Source: an uncultured Gammaproteobacteria bacterium
Lineage (GTDB): Bacteria; Pseudomonadota; Gammaproteobacteria; JASBUN01
Direction: 5' to 3'
DNA: 64,000 nucleotides
NCBI GenBank assembly: GCA_963773585.1
Contig: CAVZBR010000001.1
Coordinates: forward strand, 703,882-767,881
Below, in pieces: positions 2,510 through 62,126 of the stretch. How positions within the stretch are numbered: position 1 is the first letter of the stretch; every line of letters starts with the position of its first letter. The notes beneath the pieces are model-generated. The model was not told the origin of the DNA and did not search any database. It saw nothing but the letters and a program-made list of their open reading frames with translations. The position numbers and the translations under genes were made by a program.

Positions 2510-3568
2510 TTATTGAGTTTGTTGAGCTGGCTCGTCCGATAGTTCTCGATAGATATCCATAACCCGGTTCAGACGCGCCAGAAATCGGTCCACGCACGCA
2601 GGATCGAAATGGCTTCCGCGTTGCTTGCGTAGATAGGCGACTGCATCTTGTACCGGCCAGGCGTGCTTGTACGGCCGCACTGAAGTCAATGCATCGAACA
2701 CGTCCGCTACGGCGACGATGCGCGCGCACAGCGGAATCTCCTCGGCCCGCAGCCCGTAAGGGTAGCCGCTGCCGTCGAATTTTTCATGGTGGCCGACAGC
2801 GATCGTGGCGCCCATCTGTAGATATTTGGACGGGCTTTCCTTGAGAATGTCGTAACCGATCAGCGTATGCCGTTTCATGATGGCGAATTGTTCCGGCGTA
2901 TGCTTGCCGGGCTTCAACAGTATTGCATCGGGGATGCCGATTTTTCCGATGTCGTGCATGGGCGCCGAAATGCCGATGGACTTACTTTCCTGCGCCGGTA
3001 GGCCCAGCTCCTCGGCGATCAATTGCGAATAGCGGGCCATGCGCAGCACGTGGTTGCCGGTTTCCTCGTCCCGGTATTCGCCGGCTTTCGCCAGGCGAAT
3101 CAAGGTCTCCCGTTCCCGGGTGCGGACCGCGTCAGTGGCCTCCGAGACCCGGCTTTCGAGCCAACGGTTGCGATCTTTGATAATGTGCTGTTGGCGGCGC
3201 ATGGTGAGCAGATTGCGGCACCTGGCGCGGCATTCCACTTGATCCACGGGTTTGGTCAGAAAGTCGGTTGCCCCAGCCTCGAGGGCCTGGTAACGGATTT
3301 CGCGATCCTCGATACAGGTAACCATGACCAGCGGTACGTCCAGGCAATGGGGAATCTGCCGGAACAGCCGGGTGAACGAAATCCCGTCAAGGTTGGGCAT
3401 TTTGTAATCCGTGAGTACGAGATCTGGCGTGTTTAGTTCGATCCAGGCCAGCGCCTCGACCGGATCCGAAAACGAACGGACCTCCGCGGATTGTTCAATG
3501 GTGCCGATCAGTTTGTCCAGCAGCTTTCGACTGATAGCTTGGTCGTCGATGATCACGATACGTGTCAT
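2510..3568 (-). CDS. Response regulator with HD-GYP domain (RpfG-family c-di-GMP phosphodiesterase)
   Basis: ORF 2510..3703. REC begins MTRIVIIDDQ at an internal ATG (3568), so the upstream 45 codons are probably not translated. HD (APMHDIGKIGIPD) and HHEKFDGSGYPYGL motifs present. Confidence 0.85.
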   Translation of the reverse strand: MTRIVIIDDQAISRKLLDKLIGTIEQSAEVRSFSDPVEALAWIELNTPDLVLTDYKMPNLDGISFTRLFRQIPHCLDVPLVMVTCIEDREIRYQALEAGATDFLTKPVDQVECRARCRNLLTMRRQQHIIKDRNRWLESRVSEATDAVRTRERETLIRLAKAGEYRDEETGNHVLRMARYSQLIAEELGLPAQESKSIGISAPMHDIGKIGIPDAILLKPGKHTPEQFAIMKRHTLIGYDILKESPSKYLQMGATIAVGHHEKFDGSGYPYGLRAEEIPLCARIVAVADVFDALTSVRPYKHAWPVQDAVAYLRKQRGSHFDPACVDRFLARLNRVMDIYRELSDEPAQQTQ

Positions 3569-3740
3569 GGCATTTCCGATCTGCTGGTGCCTGCCGACCG
3601 GCAAAGTCGGGTGAAAGGCACTGTAAGTATTGGATATTGCTGCAACAAAGTAAACTTCGGCGGGGCGGTCCACAGATCGCCGGCGCAGTCCGCCTAACGC
3701 CAATATCGACCCGTTCGCGTGAATTCTGAAGGTTTCAGAG

Positions 3741-12995: not shown

Positions 12996-13919
12996 ATGAT
13001 CGGGGGAACCTTGGCTCGGGGAGCCGTTTGTGCGTGTTTTATTTTGGGGGCCATCGCCGCAGGGCCCGTTCAGGCCACACCAATCTCATTGTCGACCGCC
13101 TCCGGATCATTCGGCGGCGAATTTCTGCAAGGCGCCGGGTCGCCCAACGTCGGCATAATTCTGTTGCACGGCCGGGGGTTGACGCCCGATTCGGCGGTAA
13201 CGCGGCAGCTGCGCAATAGCCTGAACAACGCCGGCTACAGCACACTGGCGATCGAAAATCCCGTTCCAGCGGACTCGAATGGCAATGGCAGCAACACCGA
13301 TTTCAGCGATTATGCGGCCGACGTCAGCGCAGGCGGCGCGAATTATGTATTTCCGGAAACCTATGCGCGCGTCCGTGCAGCATCTTCCTACATGCAATCC
13401 CTTGGCGTCGATCAGATCGTGCTTTCCGGCTTCAGTCTCGGTTCGCGCCTTGCCGCCGCTGTTGTCGCTCGCGGTCAACATGCTGGGGATGTGCCTATTG
13501 TGGGTCTGCTAAATGTCGGCATGTACGGCAATAGCATCGATCCGTTGAACGTTGTCGACACCTTGGACGAAATCACAATTCCGGTATTGGACATCTACGG
13601 CGACGGGGACACTAACGCGGTCACCACGGCGGCGGCGCGAGTGGCAGCTTACGGCGGAGCGCCGACGGATTATCTGCAGATCGCGCTCGACTGCCCGGCG
13701 ATCTCGCTTACTTATTCGGTAAACGATTGCCACAAGTTGCGCGGCAACAATCTCAAGGGCGCGGACGATCGACCGTTGGAAACGACTGCGCGCAATTGGA
13801 TGCAATCCGTTGCGCCTCTGGCCAGTGCCAGCGTGCCGGAACCCGGAACCGGCCTGCTCCTGGCGCTCGGGTTCGGCGCCATGGGTTGGCATCGCCGCCG
13901 TCGTCGCAATACACGCTGA
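12996..13919 (+). CDS. Secreted alpha/beta-hydrolase-like protein with C-terminal PEP-CTERM sorting signal
   Basis: Signal peptide, LLHGRG, nucleophile elbow GFSLGS, and C-terminus VPEPGTGLLLALGFGAMGWHRRRRR (PEP motif, TM helix, Arg cluster). Confidence 0.7.
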   Translation: MIGGTLARGAVCACFILGAIAAGPVQATPISLSTASGSFGGEFLQGAGSPNVGIILLHGRGLTPDSAVTRQLRNSLNNAGYSTLAIENPVPADSNGNGSNTDFSDYAADVSAGGANYVFPETYARVRAASSYMQSLGVDQIVLSGFSLGSRLAAAVVARGQHAGDVPIVGLLNVGMYGNSIDPLNVVDTLDEITIPVLDIYGDGDTNAVTTAAARVAAYGGAPTDYLQIALDCPAISLTYSVNDCHKLRGNNLKGADDRPLETTARNWMQSVAPLASASVPEPGTGLLLALGFGAMGWHRRRRRNTR

Positions 13920-28617: not shown

Positions 28618-28839
28618 ATGAACAGGCAGAGTTGGAGCGGCGATGCGTTCCGCAGAAGTCGATTTTTCTGGGTTGGCGGGCCGGGCGTGAGCCAGGCGGG
28701 TTGGTATGTGGAGTGCCGCGAAGGTGTGCGCGGTCCGTACTCGTCCCGGGATCATGCGCGGCGCGAATTGGCGGCAATGGTGCGCCCGCGGATTGTGAGC
28801 GGGAAGCGCACAGGCCATGCCGCGAATCAATGGATGTAG
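28618..28839 (+). CDS. Small protein resembling the DUF6316 pattern
   Basis: 73 aa with an SD (ggag) 7 nt upstream. RSRFFWVG..GWYVECREGVRGPYSSRDHARREL matches my recollection of DUF6316. The 3' end overlaps the FHA gene 3' end by 13 nt (convergent). Confidence 0.35.
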   Translation: MNRQSWSGDAFRRSRFFWVGGPGVSQAGWYVECREGVRGPYSSRDHARRELAAMVRPRIVSGKRTGHAANQWM

Positions 28840-29498
28840 AAGAATTCCATCTGAAACCCGGCGACTTCGATAATATCGTGTTCCTGTAACTGGCGCGCGT
28901 CCTGATCCAGCGGCTTGCCGTTCACCAACGGCACGTCGCTGGCGCGCTTTCCCTTTCTGCTTTTCACCGTGATGATCACGTAGCCCATGTTGCTGCGGGT
29001 GATCATGGCCATCTTGATGCCTTTGTAGCCCAAGGTGTTGAACGGCTTGCGCAGCTCGAGCACTTTTTTCGCCAGGGGGCCGTTCAAGATGCGCATCCCT
29101 GCCAGCGGCATCCCTTTGACGTCCGCGCCGAAGTCGCCGTCGGCGGCAATGACCTGGGTTTCCGCCACCTCGGCCCGCAGAAACATGGTCGGTTCATAGG
29201 CCGCCTTTTCCTCGAGGAAGTAGGTCAACTGATGGGTGCCCACCTGAATCACGTCACCGTGGTTCAGCAGCAGCTTGCGTACCTTGCGGCCGTTGACCAG
29301 AGTCCCGTTGGTGCTGCCCAGATCCTCGACGTAGGTATTGCCGACCAGGGTGGTTACCAGCGCGTGACGGCCACTGACCGTCATATCGTTGATTTGGACA
29401 TCATTGCCATGCTTGCGCCCGAAACTGATGCTGTTTGCGGCCACCGGAACCTCGCGCACGATCGCGCCGTCCAACGTCATAATCAATTTTGCCGCCAT
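28827..29498 (-). CDS. FHA-domain protein (canonical N-terminal FHA plus FHA-like C-terminal half)
   Basis: ISFGRKHGNDVQINDMTVSGRHALV..VEDLGSTNGTLVNGRKV shows the canonical FHA Gly-Arg / Ser-x-x-His / Asn-Gly motifs. The C-terminal half repeats the topology with degenerate motifs. Confidence 0.85.
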   Translation of the reverse strand: MAAKLIMTLDGAIVREVPVAANSISFGRKHGNDVQINDMTVSGRHALVTTLVGNTYVEDLGSTNGTLVNGRKVRKLLLNHGDVIQVGTHQLTYFLEEKAAYEPTMFLRAEVAETQVIAADGDFGADVKGMPLAGMRILNGPLAKKVLELRKPFNTLGYKGIKMAMITRSNMGYVIITVKSRKGKRASDVPLVNGKPLDQDARQLQEHDIIEVAGFQMEFFYIH

Positions 29499-29621
29499 CG
29501 GCTCCCCCGTTTACGCCGCCGCGGGATCGTGGGTCTGCCCGCGTAAAAAAGCCATACGAAATACGTATCTTATACCGCGCCGCGACCGTCTTGTCACGGT
29601 CGCCAAGCTGACGCCGGTTGC

Positions 29622-30698
29622 TCAGCCGGGGTCCGGACTGCCATGCTCGCGGAATTGTTCGAAATGCGATTTTTGCCGGGCCAATCGGAACGCATCGATC
29701 CCGTTGATCAGCTTATTGTCCAGCAGTCGCCGCAGCGCCGTATCGAGGCTCTGCATTCCCTGCATGGCGCCGCTCTGGATCACGTTCTCCAGCTGATCCG
29801 GCGTGCCTTCCCTGATAATATTCGCCACCGCTGCGTTATTGATCAGGATTTCCACGGCGGCCACCCGGGACTTGCCGTCCGCGGTGCGCAGCAGTTGTTG
29901 CGAAACGATCCCGCACAGGGACGTGGACAGCGCCGAGCGGATGTACGGCGCTTCTCCGGGCGGGAATGCGTTGATGATTCGATCGACGGTACTCACCGCG
30001 TTGTTGGTGTGCAGGGTGCCCAGCACCAGGATGCCCATTTCCGCCGCGGTAACGGCCAGATGAATGGTTTCGAGATCGCGCATTTCGCCCACCAGAATGA
30101 CATCCGGGTCCTCGCGTAGTGCCGAACGCAGGGCATCCGCGAAGCTTTCCGTATGTGCGCCCACTTCGCGCTGACTCACAAGGCATCCCTGGTTGAGGTG
30201 GACGTACTCGATCGGGTCCTCGATGGTCAGAATATGGCCCTTGCGCTCCCGGTTGATTCGATCGATGAGCGCGGCCAGGGTGGTCGTCTTACCGGAACCG
30301 GTGGGGCCCGTTACCAACAGCAGCCCTTTGCGTTGGCGTGCCAGGTTGGCCAGTACCGCCGGCAACCCGAGTTGTTCGAGCGTGCGCACGTCGCCCTGGA
30401 TGACGCGGAAAACGGCGCCGATGCCATCGATATGGTGGAATACGTTGACGCGGAACCGGGCCAAGTCCGGCACCATATAGGCGAAATCGATATTGCCGTC
30501 GGCTTCGAGCAGTTCCCGGGCCCGCGGCGGCATGATTTCATACAGCAGATCCTTGGTGTCTTCGGCGCTCAGCGTGCGGAAGCGAACCGGGTAGATATCA
30601 CCGTACAAGCGCATGCGCGGCGGATTGCCGGAAACCAGGTGCAGGTCCGAGCCCCCTTGCTTGACTACCAGTTCCAGGAAAGTGTCGATTCGGCTCAT
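29622..30698 (-). CDS. pilT: PilT-family hexameric ATPase (type IV pilus retraction ATPase-like)
   Basis: 358 aa with Walker A GPTGSGKTTT, ILTIEDPIEY, REDPDVILVGEMRD, GTLHTNNA and AVANIIREG motifs. Confidence 0.88.
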   Translation of the reverse strand: MSRIDTFLELVVKQGGSDLHLVSGNPPRMRLYGDIYPVRFRTLSAEDTKDLLYEIMPPRARELLEADGNIDFAYMVPDLARFRVNVFHHIDGIGAVFRVIQGDVRTLEQLGLPAVLANLARQRKGLLLVTGPTGSGKTTTLAALIDRINRERKGHILTIEDPIEYVHLNQGCLVSQREVGAHTESFADALRSALREDPDVILVGEMRDLETIHLAVTAAEMGILVLGTLHTNNAVSTVDRIINAFPPGEAPYIRSALSTSLCGIVSQQLLRTADGKSRVAAVEILINNAAVANIIREGTPDQLENVIQSGAMQGMQSLDTALRRLLDNKLINGIDAFRLARQKSHFEQFREHGSPDPG

Positions 30699-30718
30699 GA
30701 TGCGCGCACGGTCAGGAC

Positions 30719-31837
30719 TCAGCCGACCGTGAGGTCCACCGGCGGCAACAGCTCGGGGTTGGTGACGAAGCGCTGAAATTGTTTCTTGTCCGTGGAATGC
30801 AGATAGGCGTCATCCGGGTCCAGTTCGCGTTTGCGCAACGCCTCCAGCAAGGCCTGATCCATGAGCTGCATACCCGCTTGACGCCCCGTCTGGATTACCG
30901 ATGGGATCTGATGCACTTTGCCGCTGTGGATCAGATTGGCGATTGCAGGCGTGTTGAACATGAGTTCAACCATGGCTTTGCGGCCTTTTCCGTCCGCGGT
31001 GCGCACCAGTTTCTGACTCAGGACCATTTGCAGATGTTGCCCGAGAAACACGGCGGCCTGGGATTTCTGTTCGGTCGGCATGGCATCGATGATGCGGTCC
31101 AGGGTCTTTGCAGCGGAGGAGGTGTGGAGTGTGCCGAGCACCAGGTGGCCCGTTTCCGCCGCCGTCATGGCCATGGAAATGGTTTCCGGATCCCGCAATT
31201 CCCCCACCAGGATGACGTCGGGATCCTCGCGCAGCGCGGCACGAAGGCCGTCGGCAAAACTCTTCACATGGGTGCCCACTTCCCGTTGCACGACCAGAGA
31301 CAGGTTGCTCTTGTGCACGAATTCGATCGGATCTTCCAGGGTGATGATGTTGAGGCGGCGGAAATGGTTGAGCAGGTCGATCATCGATGCAAGGGTCGTG
31401 GATTTGCCTGTGCCCGTGGCCCCCGTGACCAGAATCAGTCCCTGGTGCGCCTGGTGCAGGCGGCTGGTCACCGCGCTTGGCAGCCCGAGTTGGTCCAAGC
31501 CGGGAATCGTCGCCGGCACGGCCCGCAGGGTCGCGCCCAGGCCACTCACTTTTCGGTAAACATTGACCCGAAAGCGGCCGATTTCGTCGTCCTGATAGGA
31601 AAAATCGAGGTCGTGACCCGCGGCCAGCATCCGCTCGAGCGCCGGCGTGAGAAGCTCCTTGATCAGCGACTCGAGTTCGTCGGCGGACAAGTTGCGGTAG
31701 CGAATGGGCGCCAATTCGCCCATCAGTCGCAGCATCGGCGGCATGCCGACGGCGAAATGGATGTCCGAGCAGCCCTGCTCGCGTCCGAGTTTCAGGAAGG
31801 CGTTGATGCGACTCAAACCTGCAGCTCCCGCCGGCAC
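30719..31837 (-). CDS. PilT/PilU-family hexameric ATPase, second paralog
   Basis: 372 aa with Walker A GATGTGKST (PilU-like), ITLEDPIEF, REDPDVILVGELRD and GTLHTSSA. Start is GTG 31837 or TTG 31816; both overlap the kinase gene stop. Confidence 0.88.
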   Translation of the reverse strand: MPAGAAGLSRINAFLKLGREQGCSDIHFAVGMPPMLRLMGELAPIRYRNLSADELESLIKELLTPALERMLAAGHDLDFSYQDDEIGRFRVNVYRKVSGLGATLRAVPATIPGLDQLGLPSAVTSRLHQAHQGLILVTGATGTGKSTTLASMIDLLNHFRRLNIITLEDPIEFVHKSNLSLVVQREVGTHVKSFADGLRAALREDPDVILVGELRDPETISMAMTAAETGHLVLGTLHTSSAAKTLDRIIDAMPTEQKSQAAVFLGQHLQMVLSQKLVRTADGKGRKAMVELMFNTPAIANLIHSGKVHQIPSVIQTGRQAGMQLMDQALLEALRKRELDPDDAYLHSTDKKQFQRFVTNPELLPPVDLTVG

Positions 31838-34179
31838 ATCGCCAATTCTGCCGCCAGCTCGTCGAAATCCTGATAGCGGCGTTCGGGGTCTGCAGCCATG
31901 GCTTTGGCGATTACGCGCGCGAGCCGATCTGGAACATCGGGATTTCGTTCCTGCAGCGGCGTTGCGTTGCCCTCCACGTGTTGGAACAAAATCGCCATCG
32001 GATCGTCGCCGGTGTACGGCGGGCGGCCGGAAAACATTTCGTACATCATCACACCGAGACTGTAAACGTCGGTGCGGGAGTCGATGCCATGACCGCGCGC
32101 CTGTTCCGGCGCCATGTAAGTGGGCGTACCGACCAGCAGTCCCGTGCGCGTGAGACGCGCGTCGTTCTGGCTGGTGGCCGACGCCAGGCCGAAGTCCACC
32201 ACTTTGACCAGGTCGCGGTCGTCGATCAGAATGTTGGCGGGCTTCAGATCGCGATGTACGACTCCTGCGTGCTGCGCGGCCGCCATACCGTTGGCTACGG
32301 CGGCCGCCACGGTCAGCCCGCGTCGCAAGTCCATCGCTTTCTTCGGTGCCATTTCGTCAGCCAGGGAATGGCTCGGAAAGTATTCCATGGAAATGGCATA
32401 CGACTGTCCAACTGTGATCAGATCATAGATGCGGATCACGTTCGGATGGGTGATCTTGCGGGCGTAGCGCAGCTCCTGGGTGAAGCGGCGGATCACGTTG
32501 GCGTCGGAATAAACGTGGGGATGCAGGAATTTGAGAATGAACTGGTCGCTGACCACCGTGTCTTCGACCAGGACTACGACCCCGAAGCCGCCGCTTCCCA
32601 CTTGGCGCACCACCCGGTAACGATCGGCGAGCAGATCGCCGTCCCGCAACGAGGGCGCGTCGATGTACAGTTCGCGCTTAGCGTCGCTCGAGGCAAGGTC
32701 GAGCATGGGCCCCGACGCTGCCTGGGTAATGCCGCTGTGGCTGGTGGCACCGCTGTCCAAGCGCATTGCGATGGTCGCCATGGTTTCGTCCGCGAGCTGC
32801 TGCATGCGCGGGTCCGAGGCATCGATGACCTGCGTCAGTGCTTCGCGCACGGTGTGGGCTTGTTTGGCGTCGGTCAGTTGTCCCAGCGCGCGTATTGCTT
32901 CCTTGCGCACGTCGGGGTCGGCGTTGTTCTTCAATTCCGTCAGCAATGGCGCTACCGCATGATGATCGCCCAGACTCGCGAGGGCACGAATCGCAACCCG
33001 CGCCGTGCGGGGATCGCCGGACAGCAGACGTTCCAGGTGTGGCACGGCGCGTTCCTTGCCCAAGGCCGCCAAGGCGTCGGCGGCCCGTTCACGTACCCAC
33101 CAATCCTCGTCCTGGAGCGCTTCAACCAGGTAATCGAACGCCTTTTCGTGCCGAGAAGAATTCAGGATCTCCACAGCGGTGCGGCGCAGGAACTCGTCTT
33201 CATCGCGGATCAATTGCAGTACAGCGTCCAGTACCTTGGGACCGCCGATACTGCCCAGTGCATCCGCGGCCCGGACTTTCACCCACCAGTCCTTGTCCCG
33301 CAAAGCGTTGAGTAAATCCTTTACGGCGCGCTGATCGCCGACTTCGTTGAGGACTTCGACCGCGGCGCGGCGGATGTATTCGGATTCGTCCTGGAGGCTT
33401 TCGATCAAGTATTGCACGGTCTTGGCGTCGCGAATCTTGATCAGCGCCTCGATTGCTTTGGTTTGCACGGTCAAATCGGAATCCCGTAGGAGCGCGAAAA
33501 CCGGTTTCGCAGACACCGGCAATTGCAACGCCATCAGCGACTCCAGTGCCGTCAGCCGGACCTGTTTCGCCGGGTCCTGCAACATCTCGAACAAGGCGTC
33601 GCGGCTGGCCTCGGTACTGAAACGGCCGAGTATCTTCGCCATTCGCGCTCGAATCCCCGGGTCGTCGCTTTTCGCCCTGAGCGCTACATCCGCAATGTCC
33701 TGCAGCGATACGGTCTGGTCCAGCAGCTGATACAGGAACGGGCGCAAATTCGCAGGCACCGTGTTCAGCAGTGCCAGGATGGGGCGCGGGTGCAGATGCT
33801 TGCGGTGCGCCAGCAAGATGCTGGTAAGCGCTTTTTTCGAAACGTCGGGATCGTCATACAACGGGATCAACGCCGCGGGGTTCAGGCGCTCCGCGTGGCT
33901 GAGTACACCGACGACGCTGTCCACGAGGCGCGGGTCGTCACTTCGCAGTGCGTTTACGAAATGCGACAGGCTGCGGTCGTCGACGAAACCGATCAACAGG
34001 TTTTCGATCGTCGGGCTGGGGGCGGAAACGGCCATTGCGTCCAATAGGCGGGGTACCACGGAAGGTCCCACTTGGCGAAGCTTCAGCAACGCCTGACGCG
34101 CCTCGGGCGAATTCGGGCTGGCCGCACCGAGGATCGCCGCGATCGCCTTGTTGGCTTTATAGCTGTCCAGTAGACCCAT
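31813..34179 (-). CDS. Soluble Ser/Thr protein kinase with N-terminal HEAT (PBS-lyase type) repeats
   Basis: 788 aa with repeated ..VR..A..ALG.. HEAT units in roughly residues 150-470. C-terminal Hanks domain shows GSGGFGVV, ILKF, HRDLKPANILI, DFGLA and GTPTYMAPEQ. No TM helix. Confidence 0.9.
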   Translation of the reverse strand: MGLLDSYKANKAIAAILGAASPNSPEARQALLKLRQVGPSVVPRLLDAMAVSAPSPTIENLLIGFVDDRSLSHFVNALRSDDPRLVDSVVGVLSHAERLNPAALIPLYDDPDVSKKALTSILLAHRKHLHPRPILALLNTVPANLRPFLYQLLDQTVSLQDIADVALRAKSDDPGIRARMAKILGRFSTEASRDALFEMLQDPAKQVRLTALESLMALQLPVSAKPVFALLRDSDLTVQTKAIEALIKIRDAKTVQYLIESLQDESEYIRRAAVEVLNEVGDQRAVKDLLNALRDKDWWVKVRAADALGSIGGPKVLDAVLQLIRDEDEFLRRTAVEILNSSRHEKAFDYLVEALQDEDWWVRERAADALAALGKERAVPHLERLLSGDPRTARVAIRALASLGDHHAVAPLLTELKNNADPDVRKEAIRALGQLTDAKQAHTVREALTQVIDASDPRMQQLADETMATIAMRLDSGATSHSGITQAASGPMLDLASSDAKRELYIDAPSLRDGDLLADRYRVVRQVGSGGFGVVVLVEDTVVSDQFILKFLHPHVYSDANVIRRFTQELRYARKITHPNVIRIYDLITVGQSYAISMEYFPSHSLADEMAPKKAMDLRRGLTVAAAVANGMAAAQHAGVVHRDLKPANILIDDRDLVKVVDFGLASATSQNDARLTRTGLLVGTPTYMAPEQARGHGIDSRTDVYSLGVMMYEMFSGRPPYTGDDPMAILFQHVEGNATPLQERNPDVPDRLARVIAKAMAADPERRYQDFDELAAELAMCRRELQV

Positions 34180-34215
34180 GGCGCGCTGCTCGACGATCCG
34201 ATTATGGTGAGCGGA

Positions 34216-34698
34216 TCACTCGACCCCTTCGGATCCGAGATCGGTGGCGTGGATGATGTATGCCTTATTGACCAAGCATACTCTCTCGTCTTCCAGCCAC
34301 AGACGCACGAACCGCGTTTCAGGTAGATTGAGATAATCGATCAATCGCGAATGGTCGGGTGCCAGCGATTCGTTCACCCAGCCGGAGATCACCGAACCAT
34401 CCATCAGATACAGTCGGCACTCGAACGGATGAACGTCCCCTATCGGGGTTCCCGCCGGCTCGTCGTATTCCGCCCGGACGATCGCGGAGCGCTGATAGAA
34501 GCGCAATTCGTCGGGATCGTGGCGCTGCACGATCAGAAACGGCGCCACTTCGTTCAGTAATTCCGCAGGATCCTGCTCACCGGCGTGGGTGCGGCTCTGG
34601 GTATGGACAAACAGGGAGCCGCGTACCTGGCCTTCCGGGTGCACCCACAGCACCACGGGCCGGGTTTTCTTAGGTACTTTGAGGAATTCGCTGCTCAT
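34216..34698 (-). CDS. Hypothetical 160-aa protein with internal duplication, first gene of the kinase/ATPase string
   Basis: Coding-like ORF 36 nt upstream of the kinase gene. It has two similar halves (see findings). No family recognised. Confidence 0.6.
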   Translation of the reverse strand: MSSEFLKVPKKTRPVVLWVHPEGQVRGSLFVHTQSRTHAGEQDPAELLNEVAPFLIVQRHDPDELRFYQRSAIVRAEYDEPAGTPIGDVHPFECRLYLMDGSVISGWVNESLAPDHSRLIDYLNLPETRFVRLWLEDERVCLVNKAYIIHATDLGSEGVE

Positions 34699-34932
34699 AG
34701 GATGGCGCCCCTTGCCGTGAACCGTGCCCCAACGGCTCCTGCTGCCGCCGTCTGGACCTGTATATTTATCATAATTAGACTGCCCGCTTTATGGAAACCG
34801 AACCTCAAGCTTCGCCGCAACAGTTCGCTAACTTGATCTGAGCGATACAGAATTGGGCGCCACTGCACGCCGCCATCTGGCGTTTGCGGCACAATTCCTC
34901 GCTATACTTGTGAGAATCGAACCATTGAATGG

Positions 34933-35754
34933 ATGCAGGGAATGACGGAGCAGGCAGACGGTCATGGCGAAGCCACGCACAAAGGCCGAGTTCGCGACCT
35001 GAACGAAGACAGTTATGTCGCCGACCCGCAGCTGGGCCTGTGGATCGTCGCCGACGGCATGGGCGGCCACGAAAGTGGGGAGGTCGCCAGCCGCATTGCC
35101 GCGGATTTCATCCACGAACAGCTCAGTCATGGCGCGGGACTCCAGGAGGCCGCGGCGCGTGCCCACGACGTGGTCACGCTGGCGGCGCAGGAGGGTCTGG
35201 GCCAGCCGGGAATGGGATCGACCCTGGTGGCGTTACAGCTTCGCGACGCCCGGTACGAGGTGGTCTGGGTGGGCGACAGTCGGGCTTATTTGTGGCAGGA
35301 CGGTGGCTTGCGCCAATTGACCCGCGATCACTCGTTCGTACAAAAAATGCTCGACGAAGGACAGATCAGCAGCGCCGAAGCGGTCAATCATCCCTACCGC
35401 AACGTCATCACCCAGGCATTGGGTGTGGCAGACCTGGATCGGGTCGAGGTCGGGGCGGTGTCGGGGACACTATGTCAGGGCGAAGTAGTACTATTATGCA
35501 GCGACGGGCTGACCGGAGAAGTCTCTGAAGAAGAGATCGGCACCGTGCTGCATGGCGCGGACAATCTTCAGGTTGCGGCCCAAGCGCTGGTGGACTCGGC
35601 GCTTGAACACGGCGGGTCCGACAATATCACCGTCTTACTGGTGCCCGCTCCTGCCGATGCGCCGGCACAAGACCAGGGTGCGGCACAGGCACTGGCTGAG
35701 CCTACCTTGACCTTTGACCTTGAGGATCCGTCAGCGACAAATTCCAATCGCTGA
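34933..35754 (+). CDS. PP2C-family Ser/Thr protein phosphatase
   Basis: RDLNEDSY, ADGMGGHESGEVAS, CSDGLT and GGSDNITV motifs. Divergent from the kinase operon. Confidence 0.9.
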   Translation: MQGMTEQADGHGEATHKGRVRDLNEDSYVADPQLGLWIVADGMGGHESGEVASRIAADFIHEQLSHGAGLQEAAARAHDVVTLAAQEGLGQPGMGSTLVALQLRDARYEVVWVGDSRAYLWQDGGLRQLTRDHSFVQKMLDEGQISSAEAVNHPYRNVITQALGVADLDRVEVGAVSGTLCQGEVVLLCSDGLTGEVSEEEIGTVLHGADNLQVAAQALVDSALEHGGSDNITVLLVPAPADAPAQDQGAAQALAEPTLTFDLEDPSATNSNR

Positions 35755-56273: not shown

Positions 56274-56975
56274 CTAATCGCGCGGCTGTTTGCGGATCAA
56301 TTCCCTTTGCAAGTCGGCGACCAGACGCGACAACGCCTTGCGCCGCTGCGGCTGCAGTTCCACGAACCGGCCGCCGATGCGTACACGCGCTTGATCCTGG
56401 GTGGCACTGCAGTGGCGCACTTCGAGTTTGCAGCCTACCTGGCGGCCGTCCGGCAGCCGCATTTGGCAGGGTACGATCTCGCCGGGGCGCAAGCTGACGG
56501 ATTGGCTGAATTCGACGCCGATGCCACCCTCGGACAAATCGAGAATGCGGCCCCGCAGCGAACGACCTTCGCCGCGCTCGAAGATCGCGGCAATGGGGGC
56601 GGTCATGCTGACTTTGACCCGGAAGCTGGTGCGCCGTTGCACGTACAGCACTTCTTTGGGGAAAGGCAGTCGATAATAGGCAATGCCGGACGAGTCGCCG
56701 ATTTCCTCCAGATCACTGCTGAAGCGGGTTTCGATACCTTGGACCGCGGCACTGGCGTTCAGGCGTCGTACCTCGATCAAACGTTCGTGGCCCCGGCGCG
56801 GATTGAGCTCATCCAGGATCAAGAAATCCTGTGCCAGGTCCAGGCGCAATATGGCGCTGTTGTAGCTACTGCGAAATCCCGGCAGGGTCACGCGCAGCAG
56901 CGCGCGCTGGTCCGCGATCCGGCGCAGCAGGCTGGCAATAATTTGCGGGTCGCGGATGGTGTCGCCTTGGGCCAA
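56274..56975 (-). CDS. ycgR: YcgR/FlgZ-like c-di-GMP-binding flagellar brake protein (PilZN + PilZ)
   Basis: 233 aa with PilZ motifs QRRTSFRV and DLSEGGIGV. Located next to flgN-flgM-flgA as flgZ is in Pseudomonas. Confidence 0.8.
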   Translation of the reverse strand: MAQGDTIRDPQIIASLLRRIADQRALLRVTLPGFRSSYNSAILRLDLAQDFLILDELNPRRGHERLIEVRRLNASAAVQGIETRFSSDLEEIGDSSGIAYYRLPFPKEVLYVQRRTSFRVKVSMTAPIAAIFERGEGRSLRGRILDLSEGGIGVEFSQSVSLRPGEIVPCQMRLPDGRQVGCKLEVRHCSATQDQARVRIGGRFVELQPQRRKALSRLVADLQRELIRKQPRD

Positions 56976-57207
56976 CGGGATTTACCTCACTAACGAACGG
57001 CTCGCGGCCGGTCCTAACCAATACGCATTCGGGCGCGGTCAGCTCCTGATGGTGGTTGTCGGCAGCAGCAGGTAAATGGTTGAGCGAATATGGCACGCTG
57101 ACGCAGCGCAGGGCGCCTTATCGAAGAAGGGGATTGGAGATTGATCCGTATTCGGTCGGGTGCTGGCCGGCGTTGCGACCGGTCGCCCGCATTGCGCGAT
57201 AGCCTGA

Positions 57208-57684
57208 TCAGGCCTTTGCCAATACGCGGCTGAATGCGGCGGCCTGGCTTTCACCGCTGGCACCATAGGTGACGGTTTGCGACGATTGTCCGTGGAGCGC
57301 CGCCAGTGCCTGGCGCAAATGTTGTCGGCTCAACTCCACCACTGCGCCGTTGCTCAGGTTGGCGTCGCGACATTGCCCGGTGATTTCCAGCAGACTCGCC
57401 CAGCGTTTGCGCAACCGGCCGCCGTGGTCGAAGCGGCTGATGAACGTTTCCAAACCGCCGCGGGATGCGGGGCAGCCACTGCTCTGCAACAACGCACAGC
57501 GCTGGTTGTGCAGGCTTTCCATGCGACTGACCAAGCCTTGCTTACGTTGCGCCGCCTGTTCCAGTGCGTCCGGATCCCGCCCCAGCGCTTGGGTCTCGTC
57601 CCGCAGCGTCTCGAACAGCGTTCGCGCCGTTTCGATCTCCTGGTCCATCAATTTCGCCAACTGCGGTCCCGGGTGCGTGCTCAT
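57208..57684 (-). CDS. flgN: Flagellar export chaperone FlgN
   Basis: 158 aa, helical, with a FlgN-like N-terminus (LMDQEIETARTLFETLRDETQAL). Directly downstream of flgM. Confidence 0.8.
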   Translation of the reverse strand: MSTHPGPQLAKLMDQEIETARTLFETLRDETQALGRDPDALEQAAQRKQGLVSRMESLHNQRCALLQSSGCPASRGGLETFISRFDHGGRLRKRWASLLEITGQCRDANLSNGAVVELSRQHLRQALAALHGQSSQTVTYGASGESQAAAFSRVLAKA

Positions 57685-57698
57685 GAGCGTTGCCGTTC

Positions 57699-58016
57699 TC
57701 AGTTGTTGGGTAGATAGGCTTCGAATTGCGTCAATTTGTGGGCCACCGCCCGGTTGTCGACGGTATAGGTCCCGTCATTGACGCTCTCACGCACCGAATC
57801 CACCCGTTTCGTGTCGACCACCGGAACGTCGCGGATCTCGCTTTCCAAGCGGGACAACTGGCGCCCGGTATCCGTCAGGTTGACCGAATCGACTCGCGCC
57901 GGGTTCTGGGAAGGCTCGGGTTGAGAATGATTGGTACTGTTGCTCGCCGACGAAACCTGTCCGGTTTCCGTCCCCTGGCTGCAGGGCCCGTTTAACCTAT
58001 TGATTTCTATAGCCAT
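57699..58016 (-). CDS. flgM: Anti-sigma-28 factor FlgM
   Basis: 105 aa with C-terminal VDTKRVDSVRESVNDGTYTVDNRAVAHKL, typical of FlgM. Confidence 0.85.
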   Translation of the reverse strand: MAIEINRLNGPCSQGTETGQVSSASNSTNHSQPEPSQNPARVDSVNLTDTGRQLSRLESEIRDVPVVDTKRVDSVRESVNDGTYTVDNRAVAHKLTQFEAYLPNN

Positions 58017-58057
58017 TGAAAATGCTCCTCGGTAACTAATGTACCTTTCCGCACTCT

Positions 58058-58084
58058 GTAACGGCTATTCGCATTAGAACTTTA
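58058..58084 (-). promoter_or_regulatory. Sigma-28 (FliA)-type promoter upstream of flgM
   Basis: The minus strand reads TAAAGTTC-N11-GCCGTTAC against consensus TAAAGTTT-N11-GCCGATAA. It ends about 41 nt upstream of the flgM ATG. Confidence 0.55.
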
Positions 58085-58159
58085 ACGTATGGATGTGGAG
58101 TAGTTCACTCAAGTTTAACACCGCCGCCACGGGCTGTCCCGGCGGCACGCGGCTGGCGC

Positions 58160-58891
58160 TCAAATCCGAATTTTAACCACGCCCTCCGCCACGACTTCGC
58201 CTTCAACGACGCGATTGGAGCGGCTGTTGCGCACCTGGATCCGGTCCCCGGCCGCACCGTCGCTCAAGGCCGTGCCGGCCATCCGCACTTCGATGCCGCC
58301 GGCTTCGGCGTGCAGGGTAACCTGCTGCCCGCGTTTGACCAGTTTCGGGGCCTGCAGTTGATCGGGTTGCACGACTGCGCCGTTGACGTAGCTCCGCTTC
58401 AACACTTTTCCGGTCGCCGACTGCACCTGGGTCAGATAGCCATAGGCTAGTTTGGATAAGTCCTTGCGTTGCAGGCGCAGATCGGCCGGGCGGAGTTGGT
58501 CGCCGCGGTTGACGGCGCGGGCTGCAACCACCACGTCGCCGAATACCACTACTTGAGCGGTGACATATAACGTCCACGGTTTGCGGTCGTCGCAGCGGAT
58601 GCCGACGCTGGTCGCTCCGACGCGCGGCCGACCACCGACGGCAAAGGCCTGCAGGGGGGCGTCGCATTGCCGCAGGCGCAAGCGCGGATCGAGCCTTCCG
58701 ATCTCGATTCGCGCATCTTTCTGCTGCAACGGGTCGAGCCGCGCCGTCAGGAACTGCTTGGCGCGGGCGCGGATGCTATCCGTCGACTGTATCGCCGCAC
58801 GTTCGCCGTGCGCCCCGAAGCTGCAGAACGCGGCTGCCAGAAGCGGAGCCGCCAACCACATGTTTTGGTAGATCAACAATTTAATACCCAA
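58160..58891 (-). CDS. flgA: Flagellar basal-body P-ring formation chaperone FlgA
   Basis: 243 aa with a signal peptide, a SAF-like segment (AARAVNRGDQLRPADL) and C-terminal GDRIQVRNSRSNRVVEGEV. Confidence 0.85.
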   Translation of the reverse strand: MGIKLLIYQNMWLAAPLLAAAFCSFGAHGERAAIQSTDSIRARAKQFLTARLDPLQQKDARIEIGRLDPRLRLRQCDAPLQAFAVGGRPRVGATSVGIRCDDRKPWTLYVTAQVVVFGDVVVAARAVNRGDQLRPADLRLQRKDLSKLAYGYLTQVQSATGKVLKRSYVNGAVVQPDQLQAPKLVKRGQQVTLHAEAGGIEVRMAGTALSDGAAGDRIQVRNSRSNRVVEGEVVAEGVVKIRI

Positions 58892-58980
58892 CTCCCGATC
58901 CGGTTCCCCAGCGTCAGAGATCCGACATCTCGGTCACATTCGGGACTTTACCAGCAAGTCTCGTGCCGACGAGGGCGGCC

Positions 58981-59008
58981 TCAAGCTTCCGCGGGCTGCG
59001 GCCGATAA
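58981..59008 (+). promoter_or_regulatory. Possible sigma-28-type promoter upstream of cheV
   Basis: TCAAGCTT-N12-GCCGATAA has a perfect -10, a weaker -35 and a spacer 1 nt longer than consensus. It ends 27 nt before the cheV ATG. Confidence 0.4.
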
Positions 59009-59035
59009 GCCACCAAAGCAACGATAAATCTGGAG

Positions 59036-59983
59036 ATGAAGATGGCAGGGCTCTTGGACAGCGTCGACCAACGGACTCGACTGGCAGGGCACAATCGCCT
59101 GGAATTGCTTTTGTTTCGCGTCGGGGGTTCGCAATTATTCGGTATCAATGTGTTCAAGGTGCAGGAGGTCGTCCAGTGTCCGCCGCTCACGCGCCTCCCC
59201 AATGCCAACCCGGTGGTGCGCGGCGTCGCCCATATGCGCGGCAAGACCATTCCAGTTATCGATTTGGCCATGGCGATCGGTCGGGCGCCGGTCACGGATT
59301 TCAAGACCTGCTATGTCATCGTGACCGAGTACAACCGCCGCATCCAGGGTTTTCTGGTCGGGGCAGTGGATCGCATCGTCAACATGAATTGGGAAGAAAT
59401 CCTGCCGCCGCCGAAAGGCTCCGCCATGCGCAGCTATCTCACGGCAGTCACTCGCGTGGATAACAAACTGGTCGAGATAATCGACGTGGAGAAAGTGCTG
59501 TCCGAGGTGATCGGCACCCAAGGCGACATTTCCGAAGATGTGCGTGCAGGCCTCGGCAACCGCGAAAACGTGCGTCGCATTCTGGTGGTCGACGATTCCA
59601 GCGTCGCGCGCAATCAGGTCAAGCGCACGTTGGAGCAATTGGGCTTTGAAAGCGTGTTGGCACGCAATGGTCGTGAAGCTTTGCGGATGCTCCAGGCTTG
59701 GGCCGACGAAGGCGCAATTTACGAGAACGTCTCGATGGTGATTTCCGACGTGGAAATGCCGGAGATGGATGGTTATACCCTGACCACCGAGTTGCGTAAG
59801 GATCCCCGCTTGAATCGCCTTTATGTGCTGCTGCACACGTCGCTCAGCGGTGTGTTCAACAATGCGATGGTGGAAAAGGTGGGCGCCAACAAGTTCATTG
59901 CCAAGTTCGATCCCGACGAGCTGGCGACCGGCGTCACCGCGGCGTTGGACGAGTTGAGCGGCGCGGCGGCGGTCGCTGTCTGA
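59036..59983 (+). CDS. cheV: Chemotaxis coupling protein CheV (CheW-like + receiver)
   Basis: 315 aa with an N-terminal CheW-like domain (LLLFRVGGSQLFGINVFKVQEV) and a C-terminal REC (ILVVDDSSVARN..VISDVEMPEMDG). Confidence 0.9.
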   Translation: MKMAGLLDSVDQRTRLAGHNRLELLLFRVGGSQLFGINVFKVQEVVQCPPLTRLPNANPVVRGVAHMRGKTIPVIDLAMAIGRAPVTDFKTCYVIVTEYNRRIQGFLVGAVDRIVNMNWEEILPPPKGSAMRSYLTAVTRVDNKLVEIIDVEKVLSEVIGTQGDISEDVRAGLGNRENVRRILVVDDSSVARNQVKRTLEQLGFESVLARNGREALRMLQAWADEGAIYENVSMVISDVEMPEMDGYTLTTELRKDPRLNRLYVLLHTSLSGVFNNAMVEKVGANKFIAKFDPDELATGVTAALDELSGAAAVAV

Positions 59984-60133
59984 TCACAACGCCAACACGA
60001 AATAACTCGCCTTCACCATGCTCCGACTTTTTCTTGCGGTCGCGCGCACGCGCGTGCTAAATGACTTTGCCGTGCAACGTACCGACGTGAATCGTTGGAC
60101 GTGCGCGTGATATCCAGCCTCCAGCAACGGAAC

Positions 60134-60973
60134 ATGACTTTGTCCGCGACCGTGATCAGCCCGGAAGAGTATCGGGATTTCCGCAGTTTTCTTGAGAAAG
60201 CGTGCGGAATCGTCCTGGGCGAAAACAAGCAATATCTCGTGTCCAGCCGTCTCAGCCGCGTCATGCACGAGTTCGATCTGAAGTCGTTCGGTGAGTTGGT
60301 CGCCGCAATCAAGCGCGAAGCGCAAACGCCGTTGCGTAGTCGTATCGTCGAAGCGATGACCACCAATGAAACATCCTGGTTCCGCGACAACCATCCGTTT
60401 GCGACCTTGAAGGAGCGGATTTTTCCCGAACTCGGCAAGTTGCGGCGAAATCCGATTCGGGTCTGGTCTGCGGCCTGTTCTTCGGGGCAGGAACCCTATT
60501 CGATCAGTATGACCGTGCATGAATTTCAGATGTCCAATCCGGGGGTGATGAGCGGCGAGGTCGCGATCGTTGCCACGGATATTTCCCCGGCGATCGTGAA
60601 TCAGGCGCGCTCCGGGCGCTACGACTCACTTTCCATGGCGCGCGGTCTATCCCTTGAGCGCAAACAGCGTTATTTCCGGCTCGAAGGCGATATGATGGAA
60701 ATCATTCCCGCAGTTCGCAAGCGGGTGCAGTTCCGCGAGTTGAACTTGCTGCAAAGCTATGCCTTGCTGGGGCGCTTCGACGTTATCTTTTGCCGCAATG
60801 TGTTGATCTACTTTTCAGGCGATTCCAAACGCGACATCCTCGAGCGGCTGGGCCGTGCGCTCAACCCGGGCGGTTACCTGTTCCTGGGCGGCTCCGAATC
60901 CATCACCGGGCTTAGCGACGCATTCGAGATGGTGCGTCACGGCGGCGGCGTGGTGTATCGCCTGAAAGCGTAG
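60134..60973 (+). CDS. cheR: Chemotaxis protein methyltransferase CheR
   Basis: ORF 60095..60973 with a likely ATG at 60134. RVWSAACSSGQEPYSISM and FDVIFCRNVLIYF motifs. Confidence 0.9.
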   Translation: MTLSATVISPEEYRDFRSFLEKACGIVLGENKQYLVSSRLSRVMHEFDLKSFGELVAAIKREAQTPLRSRIVEAMTTNETSWFRDNHPFATLKERIFPELGKLRRNPIRVWSAACSSGQEPYSISMTVHEFQMSNPGVMSGEVAIVATDISPAIVNQARSGRYDSLSMARGLSLERKQRYFRLEGDMMEIIPAVRKRVQFRELNLLQSYALLGRFDVIFCRNVLIYFSGDSKRDILERLGRALNPGGYLFLGGSESITGLSDAFEMVRHGGGVVYRLKA

Positions 60974-61556
60974 GTTGGGTCAAGCGCAGCGGAGATGGGT
61001 CCGCTGCGCTTGACCCAACCTACGGGTTCGACACAGTCACGGGGTAGGCCGCCGCGACGATGGGTCCGCTTCGCTTGACCCATCCTACGGTTCGACGCAG
61101 ATAGTGGCGTAGGTTGCGTCAAGGCCGCAGGCCGGACGCAACGTCGCTACGGTTCGACGCGTAACGGAGTAGGTTGCGTCACGGTCCGCAGCGACGGTGG
61201 GTCCGCTGTGCTTGACCCATCCTACGGGTTCGACGCAAGTAACGGCGTGGGTTGCGTCAAGGCCCGCAGGCGCCGATCGCGGGTATCGCGACTGCGCTTG
61301 ACCCATCCTACGGTTCAACGCAGCCGCGACGATGGGTCCGCTTCGCTTGACCCGTCCTACGGTTCGACGCAGATAGTGGCGTAGGTTGCGTCAAGGCCGC
61401 AGGCCGGACGCAACGTCGCTACGGTTCGACGCGTAACGGAGTAGGTTGCGTCACGGTCCGCAGACGATGGGTCCGCTGCGCTTGACCCATCCTACGGGTT
61501 CGACGCAGGTCACGGGGTAGGTTGCGTCAAGGCCGCAGGCCGGACGCAACGTCGGT
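60970..61556. repeat. REP/BIME-like array of palindromic units (~12 units of one family in both orientations)
   Basis: Recurrent GTAGG(A/T)TG(G/C)GTCAAG.. cores occur six times as ..CGCTTGACCCATCCTACGG.. and six times as GTAGGTTGCGTCA(A/C)GG... Each forms an 8-24 bp hairpin. The array fills the cheR-flgB gap. Confidence 0.85.
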
Positions 61557-61676
61557 GCTGCGACCCGTTCTCGTTTGCCGCAATTGCCGCCAGGGCGGCA
61601 AGCGTTCGCCGATTCGAGAGCGGCAATGCCGCTGAAGAAGCCAGCCAACCAACTGAAAAAGCAGTAAAAACAATTT

Positions 61677-61692
61677 TGGCACGGCAGTTGCT
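61677..61692 (+). promoter_or_regulatory. Sigma-54 (-24/-12) promoter upstream of flgB
   Basis: TGGCACGGCAGTTGCT matches TGGCAC-N5-TTGC exactly. It lies about 40 nt upstream of the flgB ATG (61731). Confidence 0.7.
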
Positions 61693-61730
61693 TCATTCGC
61701 TCGCAAAGGCAATCAGCTTTGGAGCGCAAG

Positions 61731-62123
61731 ATGGCAATTGATTTCGACAAGGTCCTGGGCAGTCACGAGCAAGCACTGTATCTGCAGTCGCGTCGCGCCG
61801 GTGTACTGGCTTCAAATCTGGCCAATGCCGATACCCCGAACTACAAGGCGCGGGACATCGACTTTCGCAGCGCCCTGCAGCAGGCCGGTCACAGCGTGCG
61901 TCTGGTCGCCACCAATCCCAATCACATTCAAGCCCGCGGCGCCAATCTTCCTGGCGGTGAATTACTGTATCGCGTTCCGAGCCAGCCCTCCCTCGACGGC
62001 AACACGGTCGACAACGATGCCGAACAAGCGGCGTTCGCGGAAAACGCGCTGCGCTATCAGGCGACGCTGAAATTTCTCAGCGGCCGCTTTCGCGGCATGA
62101 TCAACGCAATGAAGGATCAATAA
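61731..62123 (+). CDS. flgB: Flagellar basal-body rod protein FlgB
   Basis: MAIDFDKVLG..SNLANADTPNYKARDIDF (the ORF opens at 61719). Confidence 0.92.
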   Translation: MAIDFDKVLGSHEQALYLQSRRAGVLASNLANADTPNYKARDIDFRSALQQAGHSVRLVATNPNHIQARGANLPGGELLYRVPSQPSLDGNTVDNDAEQAAFAENALRYQATLKFLSGRFRGMINAMKDQ

Positions 62124-62126
62124 GCC

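Follow-up and report, generated by a model that had tools for sequence, protein, structure and literature searches.

Within a 64-kb stretch of DNA from an uncultured gammaproteobacterium (the window, i.e. the whole stretch that was analysed), positions 28618-35754 hold a compact block of five minus-strand genes and one divergent gene. At its centre, a soluble HEAT-repeat Ser/Thr kinase of the Hanks type is followed by two ATPases of the PilT family, here referred to as PilT1 and PilT2, and these three genes are accompanied by a small protein of 160 amino acids (aa) named unk160, an FHA-FHA' protein and a PP2C phosphatase (Table 1). This gene arrangement is conserved far beyond chance and is collinear in 80 species-level genomes.

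Table 1. Features of the kinase-PilT1-PilT2 locus, in window coordinates
Feature	Position	Strand	Description
unk160	34216..34698	-	160 aa; heads the operon; predicted two tandem small beta-barrels, Sm/Hfq-like, DUF6812-related
HEAT-kinase open reading frame	31813-34179	-	788 aa
HEAT-repeat solenoid of the kinase	32746..34179	-	aa 1-478; about 15 repeats (HEAT_2, HEAT and HEAT_PBS matches; AlphaFold2 model)
Hanks-type Ser/Thr kinase domain and stop codon	31813..32637	-	aa 515-788; Pkinase E 9.4e-49
PilT1	30719..31816 from TTG (open reading frame 30719-31837)	-	365 aa; GATGTGKST Walker A; TIGR01420 match
PilT2	29622..30698	-	358 aa; canonical Walker A; first His-box His replaced by Ile; TIGR01420 match
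FHA-FHA' protein	28827..29498	-	N-terminal FHA domain, YEPT104MF linker, degenerate C-terminal FHA-like half
PP2C Ser/Thr phosphatase	34933..35754	+	divergent; accessory module member
Divergent intergenic region	34699..34932	.	234 bp; sigma-70-like site 34797-34768 (-), about 70 nt upstream of unk160

The genes of the string are closely spaced, with gaps of 36 nt between unk160 and the kinase, 20 nt between PilT1 and PilT2 and 123 nt between PilT2 and the FHA-FHA' gene, while 234 nt separate unk160 from the PP2C gene. A preliminary description of this DNA, made from the sequence alone, had listed the six open reading frames (ORFs), their gaps and their domain identities; all of these agree with the ORF list and with the Pfam and NCBIfam matches, so that genes and domains are established. 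It had also noted that the start of PilT1, either GTG 31837 or TTG 31816, overlaps the kinase stop codon. TTG 31816 is most likely the true start: it forms a TTGA overlap with the stop codon, is preceded by GGGAG at a distance of 8 nt, and is also the start from which the public annotation derives its protein of 365 aa. The sigma-70-like site in the divergent region is a candidate promoter only, because a scan for promoters and terminators gave no matches beyond the shuffled background. No transmembrane or hydrophobic segments were detected in any of the six proteins.

Conservation of the locus

Conservation was analysed from both ends of the core. For the kinase, one genome per GTDB species was scanned; 213 stretches matched, and 80 loci were retrieved with flanks of 10 kb. 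Denominators refer to loci having enough sequence. The window proteins were mapped onto these loci by tblastn, and the core linkage counts are taken from this mapping instead of the cluster table because the greedy ORF caller sometimes swapped real genes for shadow ORFs in high-GC loci. On this basis, PilT1 and then PilT2 follow downstream of the kinase in all 70 loci, unk160 lies immediately 5' of it in 69 of 72, and an FHA-FHA' gene comes after the ATPase pair in 58 of 61. Apart from two close relatives, the kinases of the 80 loci are 45-57% identical to the window protein. The kinase family comprises more than 120 clusters with about 50% full-length identity, all from uncultured Gammaproteobacteria. 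The 80 loci are labelled Chromatiales, Ectothiorhodospiraceae, Thiohalophilus, Thioalkalispiraceae and Thiohalomonadales, and the hosts, hundreds in number, are uncultured sulfur-cycle Gammaproteobacteria of sediment and soil.

For the ATPases, metagenome contigs were scanned with a PilT1 alignment, the results being a sample. Among the matches listed, a clean identity gap separates PilT1-like genes (56-65%) from generic PilT genes (50% or less). Each PilT1-like gene listed is followed by a PilT2-like gene, and a full-length HEAT-kinase (38-45% identity) precedes it in all seven metagenome loci with upstream sequence. In contrast, the typical second gene after the generic PilT genes listed is PilU-like (33-40%), and the kinase occurs at none of these loci. 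Taken together, the two scans establish the linkage in both directions: among the matches listed, PilT1 and PilT2 are not seen without the kinase, which argues that they are not a PilT/PilU pair. The proposal of a dedicated kinase-ATPase unit made in the preliminary description is thus borne out by a neighbourhood that is kept far past close relatives.

The minimal composition of the module is evident from a divergent branch (L094, L097, L136 and L148), in which only the kinase, PilT1 and PilT2 lie between dcd-apbC and metG, and unk160, FHA and PP2C genes are absent within 8 kb. Since this branch holds nothing else of the module, the three genes represent its invariant core. In most lineages, unk160 and the FHA protein join this core, while the PP2C and fusions of FHA domains to enzymes of c-di-GMP or other cyclic nucleotide monophosphate (cNMP) metabolism are accessories. 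The kinase/PP2C/FHA triad named in the preliminary description is accordingly not what is invariant about the locus: the PP2C is found within 6 kb at fewer than half of the fully flanked loci (18 of 39), and the minimal branch lacks both FHA and PP2C.

A decayed copy of the module is present on a 2.5-Mb chromosome (CP070733.1; L083:10001-12048), where a 158-aa unk160 counterpart (unk158) is followed by a 508-aa HEAT-only protein without kinase domain. PilT genes are missing there, and the NlpC/P60-PBP1b-DinG-TsaB synteny is the same as at intact loci. Furthermore, three distinct HEAT-kinases of gammaproteobacterial type (P0033, P0049 and P0059), about 52% identical to that of the window, are filed under Kaarinaea lacus, a Nostocales cyanobacterium; these are probably contaminant contigs from the assembly of a non-axenic culture. 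Similarly odd labels are attached to L080 (Entotheonellaceae) and L081 (Candidatus Methylomirabilis).

The flanking genes depend on the clade, with TamAB and an M1 peptidase in the window and NlpC/P60, PBP1b, DinG, TsaB and ExoI or AcrB/OEP elsewhere; T6SS (type VI secretion system) genes are not among the recurrent neighbours of the kinase loci. These surroundings bear on the idea that kinase and ATPases serve an anti-phage or conflict system, which we consider highly improbable. FHA/Ser/Thr kinase/PP2C modules do occur in conflict systems, and a search of PADLOC-DB 2.0 matched the kinase domain to the PD-T4-6, Mad6 and PglW kinase models. However, these matches cover the generic kinase domain, and nothing specific was found for the ATPases, whose matches to mad8 span the P-loop only (E 1e-5 to 4e-8), or for FHA and unk160; a defence system was rejected on this ground. 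Moreover, the housekeeping synteny is stable (PBP1b, NlpC/P60, DinG and TsaB, or apbC/metG), the composition resembles that of the host genome (third-position GC content, GC3, of 0.70-0.80), and divergence tracks lineage instead of being patchy as in defence islands.

The remaining window likewise encodes housekeeping functions, namely ValS, PepA, LptFG, efflux, CorA, the M1 peptidase, TamAB, RelA and two tRNAs. As previously stated for the 64 kb, a scan of about 45 ORFs of the window with NCBIfam and Pfam, which covered the small ORFs in part, revealed neither pilus nor T6SS genes, and the prepilin motif G-F-T-L-I-E is absent from all frames of the window. A flagellar/chemotaxis cluster at 56274-63226 encodes a PilZ/YcgR-like protein (56274-56975), FlgA, CheV (CheW-REC), CheR and FlgD, and the organism is therefore probably flagellated; the proximity of this cluster to the module is not kept at other loci. 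The sole c-di-GMP enzyme identified in the window is a REC-HD-GYP-type response regulator (2510-3703, minus strand) that lies 25 kb off the module and matches a NosR-family c-di-GMP phosphodiesterase model below its cut-off (E 2.8e-42). A DUF3530/alpha-beta hydrolase protein (12996-13919, plus strand) has a PEP-CTERM sorting motif at its C terminus, implying that the genome encodes an exosortase system. Finally, a 73-aa ORF (28618-28839, plus strand) is situated in the 311 nt that separate the M1 peptidase gene from the FHA gene; it has a gene-like GC3 of 0.72, is convergent with the FHA gene and overlaps the stop codon of the latter.

Features of the encoded proteins

PilT1 and PilT2 match the PilT family model TIGR01420 over their full length with 424.8 and 445.6 bits, respectively (cut-off 319.1), and their best sequence matches in the PDB are the PilT proteins of Pseudomonas aeruginosa (PaPilT), Geobacter, Aquifex and Thermus. 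They are 44% (PilT1) and 50% (PilT2) identical to PaPilT and 47% identical to each other. The Walker A motifs given for both in the preliminary description, GATGTGKST in PilT1 and GPTGSGKTTT in PilT2, are correct. The Walker A Lys, the Asp box, the Walker B Glu and the second His of the His box are kept in 58 orthologue pairs, and both enzymes are hence predicted to be active. In addition to these intact catalytic motifs, each paralogue has an established subfamily signature. For PilT1, this combines G-x-T-G-T-G-K-S-T with a canonical His box and with a C-terminal tail, F-x-R-F-V-T-x...L-L-P, that is conserved and includes the conserved stretch Q-R-x-V-x-x-P-x-L-L-P; PaPilT is without this tail. 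In all PilT2 orthologues, EMG-I-L replaces ETG-H-L, so that the first His is an Ile while the second is kept. Both signatures persist in the minimal-trio branch, which is the most divergent. The Ile of PilT2 sits at the position of H222 in PaPilT, where an H222A exchange slows retraction and causes more falling off the type IV pilus complex, while H229A abolishes twitching (PMC10187167). Since H222A slows rather than kills retraction, PilT2 fits a tuned motor better than a dead one.

These features also speak to the question of whether the two ATPases are simply the canonical pilT and pilU of the lineage, with kinase, FHA and PP2C regulating ordinary twitching. Their tandem order resembles that of pilT-pilU, both pass TIGR01420, and the Walker A of PilT1 (GATG) is similar to the one encoded by PilU-like second genes at generic loci. 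Nonetheless, such a canonical pair is very unlikely. PilT of Neisseria is 67% identical to PaPilT and the non-retracting Geobacter paralogues are 45-52% identical to it (PMC5065972), compared with 44% and 50% for PilT1 and PilT2. Both ATPases are nearer to PilT than to PilU, as their structure-sequence scores are 327 and 300 bits against PaPilT and 274 and 252 bits against PilU (9n32). The genuine pairs in the same scan combine a PilT of about 50% identity with a PilU-like second gene that is merely 33-40% identical to PilT1 or PilT2, in the opposite order. A degenerate AIRNLIRE motif in both paralogues and the lost first His of PilT2 add to these differences, and canonical identity was rejected as unlikely on account of the low identity, the altered motifs and the dissimilarity to real pairs.

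For the kinase, Pfam detects five HEAT_2 matches (E 5.5e-57) besides HEAT and HEAT_PBS matches in the N-terminal part, and the AlphaFold2 model comprises 30 helices in residues 1-478, corresponding to about 15 HEAT repeats, before a disordered linker at 477-503. Repeats 9-12 contain many residues that are invariant among orthologues. The catalytic set is invariant as well (Gly loop, K550, H642-R-D644, D662-F-G and the APE motif). With its HEAT repeats, its complete Hanks domain (Pkinase) and no transmembrane segment, the protein conforms to the architecture assigned to it at the outset. Its kinase fold matches the kinase domains of PknB, PknA and Stk1 (E 5e-18), with the PknB-GarA complex as the best structural match. 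Against the Stk1/PknB PASTA kinase model NF033483, it reaches 281.5 bits (cut-off 450) through the kinase domain alone, and no PASTA domain is present.

The FHA-FHA' protein carries an N-terminal FHA domain (PF00498, E 1.6e-20), in which the phosphothreonine pocket residues G27, R28, S42, H45 and N64 are invariant in 56 of 56 sequences. The linker that follows is near-invariant, Y-E-P-T104-M-F-[ILV]-x-A-E ... T114-x-x-[IVML], and T104 and T114 each have an aliphatic residue at +3, the kind that FHA domains prefer. This anatomy of pocket and linker Thr suggests an intramolecular switch of the GarA/OdhI type. The C-terminal half is FHA-like but degenerate and without S-x-x-H; hhalign aligns it with the N-terminal half at E 1.7e-4. 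Against the TagH/Fha1 model TIGR03354, the protein scores 38.6 bits (cut-off 120.25), with the FHA domain only. Two tandem FHA-FHA' paralogues follow PilT2 in one sub-clade (L005, L007, L010, L014, L017, L019, L021, L024, L033, L046, L049, L052, L057 and L066), and most of these double loci have FHA-GAF-HD-GYP and PP2C genes upstream too.

The PP2C is of the Stp1/IreP type (NF033484, 222.4 bits, just below the cut-off of 230), and its metal-binding motifs DGMGGH, GDSR, SDG and GSDN are readable in the sequence. At L067 and L069, the PP2C gene is located immediately 3' of PilT2 on the same strand. No entry of the public protein collection corresponds to the 273-aa product read from ATG 34933, although the other five proteins are all present; in the public annotation, the gene probably starts elsewhere, and Met4 at 34942 is an in-frame option.

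Further partners result from FHA domains that were independently fused to several kinds of cyclic-nucleotide enzymes; such fusions are encoded within 6 kb at 17 of the 39 fully flanked loci. FHA-GAF-HD-GYP proteins are found at 29 of the 80 loci, FHA-EAL at L081 and FHA-GAF-class III cyclase at L080 and L069; genes for GGDEF-EAL proteins and PAS-GAF-histidine kinases can likewise be located at the end of the operon. Hence, the six-gene set originally outlined is right with respect to its conserved collinear core, yet it omits the recurrent FHA-HD-GYP, FHA-EAL and FHA-cyclase partners.

These fusions could also be read as outputs of a reversed flow of information, in which PilT1 and PilT2 would be the sensor, their nucleotide or load state reflecting the activity of a pilus or platform, the HEAT-kinase would transmit the signal, and the FHA protein and FHA-cNMP enzymes would respond. 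The module would in this case serve surface or mechano-sensing instead of switching a motor. It would fit that the invariant core is made up of kinase and ATPases without FHA or PP2C, that FHA next to the core is repeatedly fused to the output enzymes HD-GYP, EAL or cyclase, that sensing of the hexamer state by a HEAT solenoid is plausible, and that PilT of P. aeruginosa has been proposed to be part of cAMP-raising surface sensing (PMC10187167). On the other hand, PilT-like ATPases are not known to regulate kinases, the lineage of the window has no FHA-cNMP enzyme next to the core, and its stand-alone FHA-FHA' protein is without output domain. Overall, we regard this direction of flow as rather unlikely.

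The protein unk160 is predicted to be a tandem Sm/Hfq-like two-barrel protein. Its single Pfam match, to DUF6812, is weak (E 0.007), and Pfam and NCBIfam yield no Sm/Hfq match. The AlphaFold2 model shows two tandem five-stranded barrels (pLDDT 85, pTM 0.81), one of which superposes on Hfq of Synechocystis with a TMt (TM-score) of 0.62; taken as a whole, the protein bears a weak resemblance to tandem Tudor domains. Assignment as a PilZ domain, prompted by the c-di-GMP neighbours and a D-x-S-x-x-x-G stretch, was provisionally rejected, as the spacing differs from D-x-S-x-x-G, an RxxxR motif is missing, and PilZ is not among the top 50 Foldseek matches.

The unk160 family comprises 769 clusters, every one annotated as hypothetical. 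An earlier profile search had yielded close orthologues only among its best 120 matches; an exhaustive one extended the family to at least 819 representatives at 50% clustering. These proteins are stand-alone and about 155 aa long, and 26 of them are close. At three independent loci (L169:7029-9131, L087:3303-4310 together with L088, and L084:33-896), a distant relative (23-35% identity) is directly followed by a different ATPase of the PilT/T2SSE family, and the kinase is absent; the two-barrel family therefore adjoins PilT-like ATPases repeatedly, irrespective of the kinase. The ATPase at L169 has 543 aa, with an extra N-terminal region of about 165 aa that resembles a duplicated PilT N-domain. 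A CNNM/CorC gene lies near the pairs at L169 and L087, a cation-efflux gene at L087 and L088, and TypA at L169. A distant unk160 relative also adjoins a GGDEF-EAL gene. Five of the seven distant-relative loci (L082, L084, L086, L089 and L090) are short of a full neighbourhood, L084 showing the start of the ATPase gene. The pairs of two-barrel protein and PilT-like ATPase may represent a second system that does without the kinase.

Proposed function and alternatives

The reading that we tentatively prefer, at somewhat less than even confidence, is that the module constitutes a conserved cytoplasmic signalling-motor unit, in which a kinase-regulated PilT1/PilT2 pair acts on a pilus-like platform encoded elsewhere. 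A type IV pilus-like platform is a plausible target in view of the family to which both ATPases belong, and through the module, motor activity is probably connected with signalling by phosphorylation and by cyclic nucleotides. The core of soluble HEAT-repeat Hanks kinase and two specialised, paralogous hexameric PilT-family ATPases is translated from one operon. Its complexes and substrate, the direction in which control runs and its action on a pilus are inferred in the scheme that follows. PilT1 and PilT2 would form a non-canonical motor pair, either as a mixed hexamer or as cooperating hexamers, that docks on the platform, with the HEAT solenoid and unk160 as putative scaffolds or adaptors for the ATPases and the C-terminal tail of PilT1 as a candidate docking peptide. 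The kinase may then phosphorylate the linker of the FHA protein at Thr104, Thr114 or both; the FHA domain of this protein could bind its own phospho-linker, as in GarA and OdhI, and thereby alter the engagement of the motor pair. Conceivably, the PP2C resets this phospho-switch, while FHA-HD-GYP, FHA-EAL and FHA-cyclase proteins would recognise the same phosphorylated sites and tie second-messenger levels to them.

Several observations weigh against this scheme. Pilus genes are absent within 10 kb at all 80 genome loci and within 8 kb at the 12 inspected PilT1-like metagenome loci. PilT depends on its AIRNLIRE motif to retract pili in vivo, but the Arg of this motif is gone from both paralogues, the sequences being AIANLIHSGK for PilT1 and AVANIIREGT for PilT2. 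Gating by FHA cannot be a universal mechanism because the minimal-trio branch is without unk160, FHA and PP2C nearby, and the hhalign probability for the second FHA-like half is a modest 49%. Foldseek relates unk160 to Hfq with probabilities of 0.97-0.99 and TMt values of 0.55-0.65 over about 65 residues, yet E values of 0.2 or more render the match not significant. Finally, all genomes are metagenome-assembled genomes, and the remaining data are metagenome sequence.

Some of these points would suit a motor unrelated to pili, in which PilT1 and PilT2, together with the Sm-like protein and under phosphothreonine regulation, would act on an RNA or ribonucleoprotein, a protein complex or another envelope machine (cf. 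DotB of the type IV secretion system). The lack of pilus genes in cis at every examined locus, the solubility of all proteins, the degenerate AIRNLIRE in both paralogues and the predicted Hfq-like fold of the partner unk160 agree with such a role, as does the association of the two-barrel family with N-terminally extended PilT-like ATPases near CorC/CNNM and TypA. However, both ATPases score well above the PilT/PilU cut-off and are nearest to genuine PilT structures, DotB scoring far lower against them (128 and 161 bits), and the Hfq likeness is structural only. Furthermore, pilT and pilU are normally unlinked to pilus structural genes, as in the P. aeruginosa and Neisseria loci, and their absence in cis, to which the preliminary description had drawn attention, therefore carries little weight. 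We thus judge a target outside the pilus to be possible, albeit improbable. Similarly doubtful is a pilus-independent, phospho-regulated ATPase machine of the cytoplasm composed of PilT1, PilT2 and the DUF6812 two-barrel protein. In that case, the two-barrel family would be a hitherto unrecognised cofactor class for PilT-like ATPases, for example as a pseudo-hexameric Sm-like ring that caps the motor, and the state of the motor would be wired to c-di-GMP/cAMP turnover via the FHA-fused enzymes.

All domains of the module are known, and gating of large machines by kinase, PP2C and FHA proteins is known already. In the searchable literature, we found no description of a HEAT-kinase/PilT1/PilT2 module; the HEAT-kinase architecture, the fixed combination of the kinase with two signature-bearing PilT paralogues, the two-barrel partner family and the FHA-cNMP fusions appear undescribed there. 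The control of PilT-family motors is usually ascribed to response regulators, to PilZ/c-di-GMP proteins or to competition for the platform. With a Hanks kinase genetically inseparable from a dedicated PilT pair, eukaryote-like Ser/Thr phosphorylation would be added as a direct layer of control or read-out for such motors. The His-to-Ile exchange of PilT2 at the H222 position of PaPilT, the C-terminal tail of PilT1 and the YEPTMF stretch of the FHA protein, a candidate phospho-switch, provide testable handles. For the widespread DUF6812-type two-barrel family, with its at least 819 clusters at 50% identity, partnership with PilT-like ATPases is the first functional context to be assigned. In addition, the repeated FHA-c-di-GMP/cNMP fusions beside the core suggest a link between motor and second messenger, a central question in surface sensing.

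Comparison with known systems

A close parallel to the signalling-motor unit proposed here is the PilT/PilU pair of P. aeruginosa, Vibrio and Neisseria, with which it shares two tandem genes for hexameric PilT-family ATPases that match TIGR01420 over their full length and retain the catalytic motifs. The dependence of PilU on PilT is a precedent for one paralogue needing the other (PMC6762196). In contrast to that pair, both ATPases of the module are PilT-like, AIRNLIRE is degenerate, the first His of PilT2 is lost, and PilT1 features a GxTGTGKST Walker A and a C-terminal tail. The operon with a Hanks kinase also sets the module apart, as none of the generic pilT-pilU loci listed in the ATPase scan has one.

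The preliminary description had drawn a parallel to PpkA/PppA/Fha1 of the P. aeruginosa H1-T6SS. This is an analogy of logic only: in both cases, a Hanks kinase, a PP2C and an FHA protein are encoded beside an ATP-driven machine that is presumably gated by them; the defining features of the T6SS pathway, though, are not found in the module. Its kinase is soluble with a HEAT solenoid, whereas PpkA is a membrane kinase with a periplasmic domain; its FHA protein remains below the TagH cut-off, T6SS genes are lacking, and PP2C and FHA are dispensable in one branch. Membership in the T6SS-type threonine-phosphorylation pathway was consequently rejected on the basis of TagH score, kinase topology and locus content.

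Another resemblance exists to PknB/PknG-GarA (OdhI), where a small FHA protein has its own conserved Thr motif that can bind the pocket in cis once phosphorylated, which for the module is deduced from sequence; the fold of the module kinase is nearest to PknB. Unlike the N-terminal ETTS of GarA and OdhI, the candidate motif YEPTMF is C-terminal to the FHA domain and is followed by a second, degenerate FHA-like domain, and the presumed target is a pair of motor ATPases instead of metabolic enzymes.

For unk160, the Sm protein Hfq of Synechocystis offers a precedent, as it binds the PilB-type motor PilB1 at the base of the type IV pilus (PMC7690835). In both cases, a small Sm-fold protein would be tied to a motor of the PilB/PilT superfamily, for unk160 by gene position. 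Differences are that unk160 is a predicted two-barrel protein without detectable sequence similarity to Hfq and that its partner is PilT-like rather than PilB-like.

Lastly, the archaellum of Sulfolobus, which is related to type IV pili, is regulated by a network of Hanks kinases, a phosphatase and an FHA protein (ArnA/ArnB-ArnC/ArnD-PP2A). Unlike the module, this network acts mainly on the transcription of archaellum genes, is not encoded in the operon of the motor ATPase and involves vWA and zinc ribbon partners. Common to both is the combination of kinase, phosphatase and FHA protein, which in Sulfolobus regulates a pilus-related motility machine.

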